From Candidatus Latescibacterota bacterium (GTDB lineage: Bacteria; Latescibacterota; UBA2968; UBA8231), in the NCBI GenBank assembly GCA_965204725.1, contig OZ242005.1, positions 4,480,001 to 4,544,000 on the forward strand: a stretch of 64,000 nt of DNA, given 5' to 3'. This document shows positions 1-4,049 of this stretch, one piece after another; the stretch's first letter is position 1, and every line of letters starts with the position of its first letter. Both the position numbers and the translations under genes were made by a program. The notes under the pieces were generated by a model. It was given only the letters and a program-made list of their open reading frames with translations. It did not search any database and was not told the DNA's origin.

Positions 1-2
1 TC

Positions 3-668
3 TACTCCAACGTCATCTATCTCCGTCCAGACGCCGGCCGAAATGACCCGGGCTACTACGTCCAAGAACGACGCGGCTACCGCGTCTTAGTCCAATACAA
101 GGTCATCCGGCTGATCGAGATAGACGGCCAACGCATCCTCGACGCCGGACCTTCGGGCTTGCTGCCGTTTGCGCCGTTGATGCAGCCGCCGGTGGGCGTC
201 GATGCCGAGGGCTGGTTGCGCCAGTGTGTGAATCGGGCGCAACAGGTGCCGATGGACGAGAGCCGCAAGGCGAACTATCTGGCCGATCTTGCGATGTTGA
301 GCGGACTGGTGTATAACTTAGAGACGATTATGACCATCATCGAGGAGGAGACCATGTACGAATCGTCGGTAGTGCAGTATTTCACGGAACAGGGGATTAA
401 GCAGGGGATTAAGCAGGGGATTAAGCAGGGGATTGAACAGGGGATTGAACAGGGGATTGAACAGGGCATTGAGCGAGGCGGCAGAGAACGTGCCATTGAA
501 GACCTGCTTGAAGTACTAGAGATTCGCTTTGGGCTGGCTGCGTCGGACCCGTTGGCCGCTCGCATTGGGGCCACCGACGAGGTGCAGCACCTCAAGCAGT
601 TGTTTCGGGAGGCCATACAGGTGCCCAGCCTTGACGCCTTTAGACGCCTGTTAGACCGAGCCGAGTAG
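3..668 (+). CDS. Rpn-family (recombination-promoting nuclease/putative transposase-like) protein, 5'-partial
   Basis: Frame open from the window start (YSNVIYLRPDAGRNDPG...LLPFAPLM); C-terminal QGIK/QGIE repeats then 'LLEVLEIRFG' helical tail typical of Rpn/DUF4351-like proteins. Confidence 0.75.
   Translation, partial: YSNVIYLRPDAGRNDPGYYVQERRGYRVLVQYKVIRLIEIDGQRILDAGPSGLLPFAPLMQPPVGVDAEGWLRQCVNRAQQVPMDESRKANYLADLAMLSGLVYNLETIMTIIEEETMYESSVVQYFTEQGIKQGIKQGIKQGIEQGIEQGIEQGIERGGRERAIEDLLEVLEIRFGLAASDPLAARIGATDEVQHLKQLFREAIQVPSLDAFRRLLDRAE
289..356 (+). promoter_or_regulatory. Intragenic sigma70-like promoter and SD for a C-terminal (RpnS-like) product
   Basis: TTGCGA(289)-17 nt-TATAAC(312); GAGGAGGAG (342-350) directly before in-frame ATG 354. 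Confidence 0.55.
387..470 (+). repeat. 12-bp tandem repeat x7 (E/K-Q-G-I)
   Basis: GAACAGGGGATT/AAGCAGGGGATT units. Confidence 0.9.
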
Positions 669-755
669 GACGCCGCGTAATAGCGTTCTACCCGAACCCG
701 TTCAAGCCGTCCTGCCCGCGCAAGAACATTTCAGTTGTTGGAGCAGGACGCTTTT

Positions 756-803
756 CTGGCTTCCCGCCCCGTGTCGGGGCACGGGGTGGCGTTCTTGCGC
801 GGG
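756..803 (-). repeat. REP-like palindrome, right part (split by IS110)
   Basis: Minus strand CCCGCGCAAGAACGCCACCCCGTGCCCCGACACGGGGCGGGAAGCCAG; near-identical to copies at 9448-9501 and 18734-18786 but lacking the leading GTCATT, which lies at 1666-1671. Confidence 0.85.
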
Positions 804-820
804 AGTATCTGTGTTGCGGG

Positions 821-1444
821 TCAAGCCTTTTTGTGGCCTACTGGGGCGGGGTGTTGGACCCACGGGGAGCCTCGCTGGGCAATGGCGTTGAGCACCAGCA
901 GCAGCTTCCGCATCACCGCGATCAGGGCCACCTTGCCGGTCTTGCCCCGGGTACACAGTCGTTGATAGAACCGCTTGAGGTCGTCGTTGCAGCGGATCGC
1001 CACCAAGGCCGCCAAGTACAACACCTTCCGCCCCGGACCGAGCGATACCCCTGCTGTCGGCCGCTGTCGTTGGCCCAAGGGGCCAGCCCGACCAACGAGG
1101 TCACCTCCTTGCCGCTGTAGTGCCCTAACTCCGGCAGATACCCCACCAGCGTCGCCGCGGTCAACGCACCCACGCCCGGTACACTGCGGTGCTTGGGCGA
1201 AGCTGTGCACGCGATTGGGATGCACTACGTGGACCGGTCACCCTGTGGCCTGCACCCGACGCACCAGAGGCCGCTCATAGCCCCCCGTCGGTTCGCACAC
1301 CACCTCGGTCGCCCCCTGGCGTTCCAACCACCCCACCAAGGCCGTACGCCCCGCGGGGGTGTTGGCAAATCGACGCACCCGACCGGCCGACACCGACACG
1401 TCCAAGCTCGTCTTTCCTACGTCTATACCGGCCATAACTTTCAT
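821..1444 (-). pseudogene. IS110 DEDD recombinase/transposase pseudogene
   Basis: N-term GIDVGK...CEPTGGYE, stop at 1238-1240, large internal deletion, frameshifted C-term GLAPWANDSG...GGR / LYLAALVAIR...KVALIAVMRKLL. Confidence 0.9.
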
Positions 1445-1479
1445 GCTGACAGCCTCTTGGTTATCGTTAGCATGGTGCT

Positions 1480-1655
1480 GTCCTCCCCACTTGTAATACG
1501 GGCCTCGTGCCCCTGTATCGGTTCGGAGCGACAACTCAGCGTGAGGGGTGTCTTACTCCCGCACGGTGCCGCCGACACGGACGTGCCGGCGCACCCAATG
1601 ACGGACGACGCGCCCCGCACGCGGCCCTTTCAGAGTGGCCGATCTGAAAGGAATA
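1480..1655 (-). ncRNA. Putative IS110 bridge RNA (5' hairpin, target-binding loop, donor-binding loop)
   Basis: Hairpin 1626-1651; guide 1597-1606 identical to left target flank 1666-1675; hairpin 1565-1595; guide 1555-1562 complementary to right target; donor-like guides at 1515-1522 and 1490-1493. Confidence 0.75.
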
Positions 1656-1755
1656 CGCAACATCAAATGACGGACCCCGGATCTACGGCGTGTTCAACAT
1701 GCCCCAAAGTGGGTTTTCAGACCGCTTCTTAACAACTGAACGAAAGGAACATTCG

Positions 1756-3201
1756 ATGCGACACAGCTATTTGTCTGCTTTGCTCCTGCTGGTGGCAATC
1801 TACCCAGCGGCCGCAAACCGCTACGACGATCCGGGCTTCCTCACCAGCCACCTCGTCTCCGGCGGGGTGGCCAAAGATGGCATTCCGGCCCTAACCAATC
1901 CCACCTTTGTAGGACCGGACGAAGTGAACTATCTAGCGGAAGACGACGTGATTATGGGATTGGTCATCAACGGCCAACCGCGGGCGTACCCGCACAACAT
2001 TGGCTGGTGGAACGAGGTCATCAACGACCGCGTCGGCGATCAGTCGGTCGTCGTATCGCTGTGCCCGCTTACGGGGACCGGCCAAGTCTTCAACGCCACG
2101 GATGGCGATGGCTCGCAAATCGAGTTCGGGGTCTCCGGTCTGCTGATCAACAGCAACTTGGTCATGTACGATCGGCGCGATGGCGAAACCCTGTACCCCC
2201 AGATGATTTACACGGCCATCAACGGGCCTCAAGTCGGCGACCGCCTAGAGCTGATGCCGGTGGTGGAGACGACTTGGGCGTTGTGGAAGCGGATGTACCC
2301 GAGCACCACTGTAGTTAAGGCGACCACGGGCTGGGCGTACTACAACTCGCGGCCTGCTTACAACGAGAACCAATACACCTTCTATCCTTACGGCGATTAC
2401 CGCACCAGCCACGAGTACCTGATTTTCCTGCCGACGACCAATGGCGGCGCATTCGACCCGCGCTTTGAGACCAAGGACCTCGCGTTGGGATTGTGCCGCA
2501 ACGACCAGACAAAAGCCTTTCCCTTCGCCCGGATGCCCGACGAGGCCGTTATCAACGATCTCATCGGCGGCGATCCCGTAGTCGTCCTATTCGACGCTGA
2601 GTCGCGCACGGCCTTGGCCTATTTCAGCCAGCTCGACGACGCGCCATTGAGCTTTTACGGAGTGGAGTCTGAGGGGCCGCTGCCGGTCGAATTCATGGAT
2701 GCGGAGACGGGTTCGCGCTGGAACATGCTCGGAGAAGCTGTTGCGGGGCCGCTCGCGGGGCAGCGGTTGGCGCAAGTCCCGGCGTACAACGCCATGTGGT
2801 TTGCTTGGACCGCCTACTGGCCCGATACGGAGGTCTGGCAGCCGGGCGAGGGGATTCTCAGCCCAGCGGACATTGAGCAAGCCGCAACATCTATTGAATC
2901 CTTGGACGCCGCGCCTACGAGCTTTGCCCTGCGGCAAAACTTTCCCAACCCGTTCAACGCTCAGACCCTGATTCAGTATGAGTTACCAGCGGCCGGGCCG
3001 GTGCAACTCGGCGTGTTCAATGCGGCCGGGCAGCGGGTTCGCTCGTTGGTAGAAGGACACCAAGGGGCCGGGCTGTACTTGCAGCCTTGGGACGGCCGCG
3101 ATGATGCGGGGACAGCCGTAGCAAGCGGGACGTACTTGTGCAAGTTGGAGATGCCCGCGGCGCGGTTTAGCCAGACGCAGACGATGACGTTGGTGCGTTG
3201 A
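1756..3201 (+). CDS. Secreted DUF3179-family protein with C-terminal FlgD/Ig-like sorting domain
   Basis: Signal peptide; DGIPAL..P, AYP, CPLTG, GVSGLL.NSNLVMYDR, WFAW motifs; C-term QNFPNPFN...WDGRD...VASGTY; SD AAAGGA. Confidence 0.8.
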   Translation: MRHSYLSALLLLVAIYPAAANRYDDPGFLTSHLVSGGVAKDGIPALTNPTFVGPDEVNYLAEDDVIMGLVINGQPRAYPHNIGWWNEVINDRVGDQSVVVSLCPLTGTGQVFNATDGDGSQIEFGVSGLLINSNLVMYDRRDGETLYPQMIYTAINGPQVGDRLELMPVVETTWALWKRMYPSTTVVKATTGWAYYNSRPAYNENQYTFYPYGDYRTSHEYLIFLPTTNGGAFDPRFETKDLALGLCRNDQTKAFPFARMPDEAVINDLIGGDPVVVLFDAESRTALAYFSQLDDAPLSFYGVESEGPLPVEFMDAETGSRWNMLGEAVAGPLAGQRLAQVPAYNAMWFAWTAYWPDTEVWQPGEGILSPADIEQAATSIESLDAAPTSFALRQNFPNPFNAQTLIQYELPAAGPVQLGVFNAAGQRVRSLVEGHQGAGLYLQPWDGRDDAGTAVASGTYLCKLEMPAARFSQTQTMTLVR

Positions 3202-3249
3202 TCGGATATATTTCTCTCCATCTCATCCCCCTTTAGACGAAAGGCACCG

Positions 3250-3510
3250 ATGATGGCTAGCCTAGAAGAGTTTCCGATATTTGAGTGGGTGCGTAAGCGT
3301 GCGTGGGAGCAGGGGTTTCAGCAGGGGCTTCGGCAAGTGATCCAAGAAACCTTGGCGGTTCGGTTTGCGGAGGATGAAGTACAGGCGGTGGCTGATCGCT
3401 TGGCGGCGATTGAGCAGGTGGACCAACTGCAAGCCTTGCTGCGCATCGCTATACATGTGGAGCAACTAGCCGACTTCACCCGCTTGGTCGATGAGATCAC
3501 CGCCAAATAA
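3250..3510 (+). CDS. Stand-alone Rpn C-terminal-domain (RpnS-like) small protein
   Basis: EQGFQQG...LAVRF...LAAIEQVDQLQALLRIAI resembles the C-terminus of the ORF at 3-668. Confidence 0.6.
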   Translation: MMASLEEFPIFEWVRKRAWEQGFQQGLRQVIQETLAVRFAEDEVQAVADRLAAIEQVDQLQALLRIAIHVEQLADFTRLVDEITAK

Positions 3511-3685
3511 AAATCGCCAGCCCACCGCGAACCGAAGCCGCGCCCTGCAAGCTGGCGGTGTGCAATGGGCGGAGACCGCGACTGCCCAGCCCCGAGCGTT
3601 TCGCACTGACCGTTTGAACGCGATAGTTTCTAAGTAACTCCCACCGGCCGGGACACGAGGCCCGGCCCACCGCAAGGAGCAAGCC

Positions 3686-3916
3686 ATGACCGATCAACCC
3701 CAACCCCTAACGCAAACCCAAGACCACGACCGCCGCATTGGCCGATTAGAAGGCATTGTCGAGCAGTTAGACCGCCGACTGGACGCCATTGAACGGGCGA
3801 TTGCCGAACTGCGTGGCGAAGTGCGTGCGTCGATCCGCTGGCTCATCGGCATCCAGATAGCCAGCCTAATTGCCATTGGGAGCCTGTTGTTCAGCATCTT
3901 GGGCAAGCTACCCTAA
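3686..3916 (+). CDS. Small coiled-coil protein with C-terminal TM helix (DUF1640/XhlA-like)
   Basis: SD AAGGAG; RIGRLEGIVEQLDRRLDAIE heptads; hydrophobic WLIGIQIASLIAIGSLLF. Confidence 0.6.
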   Translation: MTDQPQPLTQTQDHDRRIGRLEGIVEQLDRRLDAIERAIAELRGEVRASIRWLIGIQIASLIAIGSLLFSILGKLP

Positions 3917-3986
3917 CCAAGTCGCCCTAGCTAGCCCTTATGCTGGCCGGGTCGAGCCAACCAAAGGAACGGAACCTGCCCTGCCC

Positions 3987-4049
3987 GTGCAGACTCAATC
4001 CTCTCAACCTCTTCACGCCTTGCCGCAAGGCTATCGGCTGCAAGAATAC
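3987..4049 (+). pseudogene. 5' stub of a Ser/Thr kinase gene (14306-type)
   Basis: QPLHALPQGYRLQEY matches QPLNALPQGYRLQEY of the kinase at 14306. Confidence 0.75.

Follow-up and report, generated by a model that had tools for sequence, protein, structure and literature searches.

A probable IS621-type bridge-RNA gene in a defective IS110-group insertion sequence of an uncultured Latescibacterota-type bacterium

In IS621 of Escherichia coli, an insertion sequence (IS) of the IS110 group, a bridge RNA is encoded in the left end, upstream of the recombinase gene, and consists of a 5′ stem-loop and, after it, two loops, each with a stem, a guide, a hairpin and a second guide. Elements of the IS1111 group and seekRNA elements instead have their RNA in the right end, downstream of the gene, whereas at the locus described here it lies upstream, in the left end. 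The available parts of their description give these elements, like ours, a recombinase of the same family and an RNA with target and donor guides. The locus studied here belongs to a stretch of 64,000 nucleotides (the window; contig OZ242005.1, positions 4,480,001 to 4,544,000) in the genome of a sponge-associated, uncultured Latescibacterota-type bacterium, where an IS110-group element sits inside a repeated palindrome. Judging from its sequence, window 1665-1479 is very probably the IS621-type bridge-RNA gene of a defective IS110-group copy. It is a new example of a known IS621-type system and brings no new mechanism.

The IS621 rules used for comparison were taken from PMC11208160 and PMC11208158, as far as the accessible text of these papers gives them; both were used for reading the guides (left target guide, LTG; left donor guide, LDG; right donor guide, RDG), the former supplying the definition of the LTG and the latter that of the handshake guides. 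A preliminary description, made from the letters of the window, had named nine segments of such an RNA, and each of them was found to read as described, at the positions given there, on the minus strand. The genome that contains the window (G000, 5.43 Mb in 2 contigs) holds four matches of the covariance model introduced below (R1), namely the window copy, two full-length sisters (A and B) and a fragment (C), that is, four related copies or fragments, as well as two short remnants. The features are as follows.

1665-804, minus strand: defective IS110-group element, sitting in one arm of a palindrome resembling repetitive extragenic palindromic (REP) sequences (TCCGTCA-TT-CCCGC...)
1479-1665, minus strand: left end of the IS with the putative bridge-RNA gene; R1 match at 1666-1479, 223 bits
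1668-1674, minus strand: TCCGTCA of the left flank, the 7-nt left target (LT); equals LTG positions 1-7, and uninterrupted copies of the family read ...TCCGTCATTCCCGC
1666-1667, minus strand: left core TT (target type); TT at 95 of the 122 genomic CGTCANNCCCGC sites, CT at 2
1626-1651, minus strand: 5′ stem-loop of 9 bp with an 8-nt loop (CCTTTCAGA/8-nt loop/TCTGAAAGG)
1611-1622, minus strand: target-binding loop (TBL), 5′ arm of its basal stem, GCGTGCGGGGCG, pairing with 1550-1539
1597-1605, minus strand: LTG, UCCGUCAUU, UCCGUCA+UU, 9 nt; 9/9 identical to the flank at 1674-1666
1565-1595, minus strand: hairpin between the target guides (helix 4), 4 of 11 pairs changed on both sides
1556-1562, minus strand: right target guide (RTG), GCGGG plus core-binding AG; complements CT-CCCGC at the right junction, 7/7
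1554-1555, minus strand: TBL handshake guide UA, which by sequence would complement donor positions 6-7 (TA of ACAGATA)
1539-1550, minus strand: 3′ arm of the TBL basal stem, CACCCCTCACGC
1525-1533, minus strand: donor-binding loop (DBL), 5′ arm of its basal stem, pairing with 1486-1479
1515-1522, minus strand: LDG, ACCGAUAC, ACCGAUA+C, covering 7 left-donor positions and the first core base; 7/8 against the right end
1500-1512, minus strand: DBL hairpin GGGC/GCCC (helix 6), 98-100% of cells paired, no covariation
1490-1495, minus strand: RDG, UACA plus core-binding AG; 6/6 complement of the sisters' circle junction CT-TGTA
1488-1489, minus strand: DBL handshake guide UG, predicted to complement target positions 6-7 (CA of TCCGTCA)
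1479-1486, minus strand: 3′ arm of the DBL basal stem
806-812, minus strand: left donor (LD), ACAGATA, formed by the final 7 nt of the right end; identical in 9/9 copies whose right end was read
804-805, minus strand: right core CT (donor type); ACAGATA-CT at 9/9 right junctions
756-803, minus strand: right target CCCGC (803-799), then what remains of the REP-like palindrome; agrees with the long form of the REP, CCCGCgcaagaacg.caccccgtgccccgacacggggcgggaa.ccag, found at many uninterrupted sites
C1:149745-150956: sister A, full-length, 92% identity
C1:2014327-2015537: sister B, full-length, 92% identity
C1:5015012-5015253: fragment C, left end only, 89%

The structure was drawn in the IS621 layout on nine aligned left ends, and the covariance model built on it was used to find four further full copies; all 13 come from 5 genomes of one genus (G008, G014, G023 and G027 below are related genomes). 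Over the nine copies, 92.2% of the cells were paired and 10 pairs were changed on both sides, and neither value was reached in any of 500 shuffles; over the 13 copies the values were 91.2% and 12 pairs, and one of 500 shuffles reached that. When the partners were slid by 1-3 columns as a control, only 45-53% were paired. Besides helix 4, compensatory changes were found in helix 1, the 5′ stem-loop (3 of 9 pairs changed on both sides, with 88-89% of cells paired), and in helices 2 and 3, the TBL basal stem, where 3-5 pairs were changed on both sides and ten standard pairs and two mismatches can be read. One pair of the hairpin at 1595-1565 is G-U in six and G-C in four of the 13 copies, with C-G/U-A also occurring; because this variable G-U pair would be C-A on the other strand, the strand of the RNA is fixed as minus. 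All 13 full-length matches begin at the first base of the element, and a recombinase-gene match lies beside the RNA in 10 of them (none beside fragment C, G027:5378 and G027:1975). In the window the RNA gene is likewise in the left end, on the same strand as the recombinase and upstream of its ATG at 1444.

The 10-mer at 1606-1597, GTCCGTCATT, is identical to the left flank at 1675-1666, and the reverse complement of 1562-1555, GCGGGAGT, is found at the right junction (810-799 region) as ACTCCCGC; together with its handshake guide the RTG (GCGGGAGUA) complements the right junction TACTCCCGC, and with one handshake base this gives a 9-nt complement. Against the empty site TT-CCCGC the RTG would form 6 pairs and one G-T wobble. 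The RTG and its core AG are invariant in 13/13 copies, and right flanks read TCCCGC in 8 of 9 cases. Apart from the window copy, fragment C agrees with its own left flank at 8/9 LTG positions, with an extra A skipped; the LTG of G027:5378 is short by one base and was left out of the in-register scoring. For the donor side, 1522-1515 (ACCGATAC) agrees with the right end ACAGATAC (812-805) at 7/8 positions; the LDG fits at 8/8 (ACAGAUAC) in the G023 and G014 orthologues and reads ACGGAUAC in four G027 copies. In the window copy a 1-nt deletion leaves the RDG only CAAG (1493-1490) opposite CTTG, that is, 4 contiguous pairs. The handshake dinucleotides UA and UG would be two guides that the preliminary description did not name, and both fit; G008 copies have GG instead of UG at the DBL handshake position.

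To estimate how often such matches arise by chance, we shuffled the 221-nt left end 20,000 times with its dinucleotides preserved. In 96 of these shuffles the 20-nt left flank was matched by a 10-nt identity, and a 9-nt reverse-complement match to the 22-nt right junction appeared in 343; 4 of the 20,000 reached both, even before the two were required to lie on two sides of one internal loop. The IS621 bridge-RNA architecture recognized in the preliminary description is upheld: the recombinase family, the left-end position, two loops with compensatory changes and four guides all agree with it.

The target is read as TCCGTCA-TT-CCCGC and the element as TGTATG...ACAGATA-CT. Left junctions read ...GTCCGTCATT|TG-ATGTTG in the window copy, ...CGTCATT|TGTATGTTG in A and B and ...CGTCATT-A-TGTATG in C, and the right junctions of the window copy, A and B read ACAGATACT|CCCGCG. 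Because uninterrupted paralogous sites are known, the insertion point is fixed to within 1 nt (one T). These sites are REP-like palindromes, either of the form CGTCATTCCCGC-GNAA-GCGGGAATCCAG or extended by an inner GGGGC/GCCCC hairpin. Base composition predicts about 1.2 occurrences of CGTCATTCCCGC in the genome, which has 95, and 37 perfect 14-bp sites (TCCGTCATTCCCGC) are unoccupied. Both flanks of the window copy (756-803 and 1666-1720) belong to REP-like families. The element has neither terminal inverted repeats nor a target duplication beyond the core, and its insertion is specific to a repeated sequence. A check of the sisters' flanks, suggested in the preliminary description, placed all sister copies at ...(C)GTCATT | CCCGC sites, which speaks for its reading. 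The REP-like left-arm 12-mer has 95 copies and CTGGATTCCCGC has 146, and the family is nested in several larger repeat families.

The preliminary description had also claimed a donor core CT and a target core TT, a difference that the paralogous empty sites confirm (95/122 TT versus 2 CT). All junctions have TT on the left and CT on the right, a top-strand pattern: CT was found at none of the 19 left junctions examined, and ACAGATATTCCCGC has no occurrence in the genome. This pattern, as far as the sequences tell, agrees with inheritance of the top strand at the junctions. By our own conversion of the strand numbering in the accessible part of PMC11208158, the bottom strand is cut 4 nt away from the cut in the top strand in IS621, and two preprints, in the parts available, argue experimentally for top-strand inheritance of the junctions. 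Top-strand junctions are expected under the published model because positions 6-7 are already mismatched after the exchange. We therefore dropped the TT-left/CT-right pattern as a proof of single-strand transfer, since the published cut positions already predict it.

Several observations weigh against the assignment to the IS621 type. (i) The cores are not the same at both ends and in the target (left TT, right CT, target TT), the second base T being kept. (ii) All four copies in the window's genome share an LDG mismatch at position 3. (iii) The LTG matches the left flank at only 7/9 positions in sisters A and B and at 5-7/9 in the G023, G014 and G027 copies (only 5/9 in one G027 copy), and two of the four G008 copies carry an LTG that misfits their own flank. 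(iv) The two donor-loop helices are invariant, so that conservation is their support; the DBL basal stem has 94% of its cells paired and no pair changed on both sides. (v) A scan of window 1-4000 with Rfam 15 (E up to 10) found no family at 1479-1665, its three weak matches (nhaA-I, Actino-ugpB and mgtE) all lying outside this region. (vi) The single-sequence fold has z = -2.0, and both this fold and RNAalifold pair the LTG with the RTG. (vii) In the RNA run X20, two contigs of 90-95% likeness touch only 1358-1408 and 1539-1557 and continue unlike the window.

As for the cores, UU is found in the LTG and the CT form in the RTG, RDG and LDG, a difference spanned by a single G-T wobble. According to the accessible text of PMC11208160 and PMC11208158, conservation is lower at the first core base and TT cores support IS621 recombination; the TT/CT difference is a variant and not an exclusion from the IS621 type. 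Since the donor-loop helices never vary, covariation speaks neither for nor against them, and their invariance agrees with the much stronger conservation of the second loop in published bridge RNAs (PMC11208160, available part). The preliminary description had counted loops that lack covariation as evidence against the RNA; the 5′ and target-loop helices do show compensatory changes, whereas the donor-loop helices are invariant. Because no Rfam family matched, membership among bridge RNAs rests on the model built here and not on a curated one. The LTG:RTG pairing was rejected as a working structure, as it shows zero compensatory change and the known architecture leaves the guides open.

The state of the window copy itself is described by three further features.

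821-1444, minus strand: remains of the DEDD/Tnp recombinase gene, with its ATG at 1444 (MKVMAGIDVGK...), broken
1659-1664, minus strand: damaged -10 hexamer GATGTT (TATGTT in the sisters); the same deletion turns the right donor (RD) from TGTATG into TGATG
819-824, minus strand: putative -35 hexamer TTGACC in the right end, forming TTGACC-17-TATGTT across the circle junction in A and B

Compared with sister B, the window copy shows 93.5% identity over 862 aligned bases and lacks single nucleotides after 1664 and 1473 and longer pieces of 314 nt (after 1191) and 16 nt (after 1032); in addition, its recombinase gene has an in-frame stop, TGA at 1240-1238. The N-terminal piece scores 28.7 bits against PF01548 (cut-off 29), and the C-terminal piece has no match. 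In contrast to this copy, whose recombinase is not intact and which is thus a defective member, sister B has an intact, open frame of 317 aa with PF01548 (DEDD_Tnp_IS110, 2.2e-22) and PF02371 (Transposase_20, 5.3e-16); its residues 5-305 align with the solved recombinases of IS621 (PDB 8WT6, 3e-35) and ISCro4 (PDB 9T56, 6.9e-37). Sister A has a 1-nt frameshift. The preliminary description had called the recombinase dead, which the stop codon and the 314-nt and 16-nt deletions bear out. The window copy is a relic, with a stop codon, two frameshifting deletions and a 1-nt loss in the -10 box and donor end, and to stay mobile in this genome the family depends on a single intact sister, B.

Twenty-three public sequencing runs were listed, one of which is recorded as RNA (share 0.04), and the assembled contigs of four runs were compared with the window. 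Contigs from runs X1, X3 and X4 span the 1191|1190 deletion joint, including an 899-nt X3 contig that covers 767-1663 with 7 differences; because contigs of three public runs carry this joint, the internally deleted form is real and not an assembly slip. Of these runs, X1 may stem from the source sample itself. Apparent empty-site joints at the locus in run X3 (e.g. 803 to 1666) were not counted, as their sides of 20-29 letters lie inside repeats. The base missing after 1664 is left-end position 3; through its loss the RDG matches the donor over 4 nt rather than 6, and the putative junction promoter is deprived of its -10 hexamer. An 80-nt X3 contig (1644-1722), with no other difference, retains the base that is absent at window 1663/1664; this 1-nt deletion may therefore be strain-specific or an assembly error.

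We also observed two left-end remnants of 33-35 nt in REP targets outside the window, at G000:C1:3366070-3366111 (minus) and C1:1854869-1854909 (plus). They read CGTCATT|TGTATG...GGCCACT(CT)|CCCGC, each joint following an internal CT in the loop of the 5′ stem-loop, and they look like products of aberrant core-type recombination with the right junction. Both share the loop variant of the window copy, yet they retain the T that it lacks. A weak nhaA-I match within the recombinase remnant (window 1068-1143, minus; 26.6 bits, gathering 37, E 0.02) is below the Rfam threshold and most likely due to chance.

When the right end (RE) and left end (LE) were joined by script, TTGACC-17-TATGTT was obtained in A and B and TTGACA-17-TATGTT in G014. 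A promoter scan by consensus rules found nothing for G023, for the joined ends of the window copy or for any integrated copy on the RNA strand; the junction promoter was scored with a sigma-70-type consensus, which may not be that of this organism. The upstream neighbour (1756-3201, DUF3179 and FlgD-Ig domain) is on the other strand, so no read-through into the RNA comes from it. By analogy with IS621, the family would work as follows. The excised circle would join the -35 box of the right end to the -10 box of the left end, and an RNA of about 175 nt would be transcribed from the circle junction, as the sequences of the sisters suggest for both steps. Once folded, this RNA would present two internal loops behind a 5′ stem-loop. 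In the target-binding loop the LTG, which has the sequence of the left half and core of the target, would pair with the bottom strand, and the RTG with the top strand. The RE-LE circle junction would likewise be held by the LDG (ACCGAUA+C) and RDG (UACA+AG) of the donor-binding loop, a tetramer of the DEDD/serine recombinase would recombine donor and target at the core, and the handshake dinucleotides UA and UG would fit the opposite DNA after top-strand exchange.

Relatives of the element were found in one genus only: of 151 genomes sampled across the phylum, R1 matched 5 (among the 22 other genomes of the genus, 4), and a recombinase search (E up to 1e-30) found 7 of 61 genomes, all of one genus; both searches are samples and do not prove absence elsewhere. 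Among these relatives, the copies of G008 (L052, L054, L058 and L060) differ in the LTG, which reads GUGGAU in two copies and GUGGUU in a third, versus the usual GUCAUU. GUGGAU fits the GTGGAT flanks of the motif CCCCGGTGGAT|TCCCGC, of which G008 has about 10 uninterrupted copies, so that guide and target vary together. In its core and right half this motif equals the usual target; in the G008 palindrome a near-identical CTGGAT is present on the opposite arm. At C233 guide and flank are concordant (GUGGAU, GGTGGAT), and at C80 they fit less well (GUGGUU, GTGGATT). The other two pairs are swapped, with a GUGGAU guide in a CGTCATT site at C43 and a GUCAUU guide in a GGTGGAT site at C336. All four copies appear decayed, with stop codons in their matches, and two G008 copies have one T fewer at the left junction. 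The swapped pairs, two cases only, could stem from guidance in trans by the RNA of the other variant, and gene conversion or homologous recombination between copies is another possible source. That the bridge-RNA family has been naturally retargeted in this genus, with RNAs acting across copies, is a tentative idea that we hold to be rather doubtful. If true, it would be population-genomic evidence that copies insert under the guidance of a bridge RNA made by another copy; where live copies land could then still be steered by dead ones whose RNA gene is intact, like the window copy, and the TT/CT core difference would be a natural marker of top-strand inheritance at the junctions.

A related question is whether the bridge RNA of the dead window copy is still made and works in trans with the recombinase of the intact sister to guide insertions. 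The preliminary description had drawn this possibility from the combination of an intact RNA and a dead recombinase; both parts hold for the RNA body and the recombinase, whereas a base has been lost in the -10 box and donor end. The RNA body is nearly that of copy B, the only differences being one G-U/G-C pair, the loop sequence of the 5′ hairpin and two positions next to the hairpin of the donor loop (variants specific to the window copy lie in the 1641-1639 region and at 1513 and 1506), and all four guides are identical. This identity also makes trans action by the window copy redundant, because the intact sister B has the same guides; as they equal those of A and B, nothing would be gained from this RNA. 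According to the accessible text of PMC11208160, assays in E. coli show bridge RNAs working in trans, and the available part of PMC13626964 states that trans action between genomic IS621 copies ‘cannot be excluded' and that integrated copies are weakly transcribed by read-through. At this locus, however, the neighbour on the other strand offers no such read-through, the -10 hexamer is damaged (GATGTT, 3/6) and no promoter-like site lies upstream on the minus strand; nor was the RNA of the window copy found in the transcript data (contigs of the single RNA run X20). The two G008 copies with LTG types exchanged relative to their flanks are what trans guidance would yield. On balance, we regard activity of the window copy's RNA in trans as unlikely.

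Far less probable is that the region is merely a structured 5′ leader of the recombinase mRNA and that its likeness to the flanks comes from REP-derived sequence carried into the element. Older work, as cited in the accessible text of PMC11208160, took IS110 ends as regulators of transposase expression, and thermodynamic folds do pair the LTG with the RTG; these pairs show no compensatory change, however, and a strong AGGAGG stands at normal distance before the ATG, well past the folded part. Moreover, a carried-over REP sequence fits poorly with two matches that lie on two sides of one internal loop in opposite strand sense and with handshake dinucleotides that fit as well, the donor-loop guides match the ends of the element itself and not REP sequence, and the G008 variant of the LTG matches a different flank. 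Finally, the idea that the 10-nt and 8-nt matches arose by chance in a GC-rich, repeat-rich genome is most improbable, for although single matches are not very rare in the shuffles (96 and 343 of 20,000), both came together in only four even without a positional requirement, and the same guides and the same kind of flank recur in 5 genomes. An IS621-type bridge-RNA gene thus remains the reading that we retain for window 1665-1479.

Some further observations were made on relatives and neighbours of the element. A second IS110 family with 45% protein identity is present in the same genus (L028, L029 and L034, in G002, G013 and G014:C138). Its guides (LTG GCGUCCCUU or GCAACUCUU, RTG CCACAAG) fit its own flanks (GCAACCCTT or GTACCTCTT, and CTTGGGG or CTTGTGG), and its target is a different GC-rich palindrome. 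In a truncated element of G027 (L061, G027:C13:1172802-1172950, minus), LTG-encoding DNA (...GGGTCATT) runs straight into CCCGCGAACGCGGGAATCCAG, as though an excision had used the gene of the guide itself as a pseudo left junction. Paralogues of a Pfam-negative gene (YSNVIYLRPDAGRNDPGYY...) adjoin both the window copy (window 3-668, plus) and copy B (L003 307-1506, minus), and this gene has a tandem GI(K/E)Q repeat arising from a 12-nt DNA repeat at about 395-470.

For the window, the practical outcome is that an intergenic REP can be annotated with a defective IS110 copy and the RNA gene that it contains. More generally, the IS621 rules (guide lengths, handshake bases, putative junction promoter and REP targeting) are legible from the raw sequence of a distant uncultured lineage. 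The genome also provides a natural substrate set with one intact copy, three decayed copies, two footprints of 33-35 nt, 37 unoccupied perfect targets and cores that differ at the first base. Such a set could be used to test tolerance of core mismatches, the strand that determines the junctions and RNA action across copies, questions left open by the papers and preprints of 2025-2026.

Among the known systems, ISPpu9 and ISPpu10 of Pseudomonas putida, in the accessible parts of their descriptions, are likewise multi-copy IS110 elements in repeated palindromic intergenic sequences and target REPs. For ISPpu10, a stem-loop beside the paired target is reported there as a second determinant of specificity, and its recombinase acts in trans. 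Unlike in these elements, with which we compared ours by description and not by sequence, the insertion point here lies inside the left arm of the palindrome. The ISCro4 recombinase (PDB 9T56) is the best solved relative of the sister-B protein (6.9e-37), the D/E/D/D region and the SG serine motif being aligned; this comparison covers the proteins only. IS621 is matched more broadly. It shares the two Pfam domains and the alignment of residues 5-305 with PDB 8WT6, an LTG of 9 nt including the core, an LDG of 8 nt that ends on the first core base and has an A behind it, an RTG and an RDG that each precede a handshake dinucleotide, a putative right-end -35 box with a left-end -10 box, and a REP target; the IS621 RNA is about 177 nt long and the one predicted here about 175 nt. 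The locus differs from IS621 in an RTG that extends 5 nt beyond the core versus 2 nt, in a longer hairpin between the target guides (31 nt), in an RDG that pairs contiguously whereas that of IS621 is discontiguous, and in a target core TT versus a donor core CT, both cores being CT in IS621.

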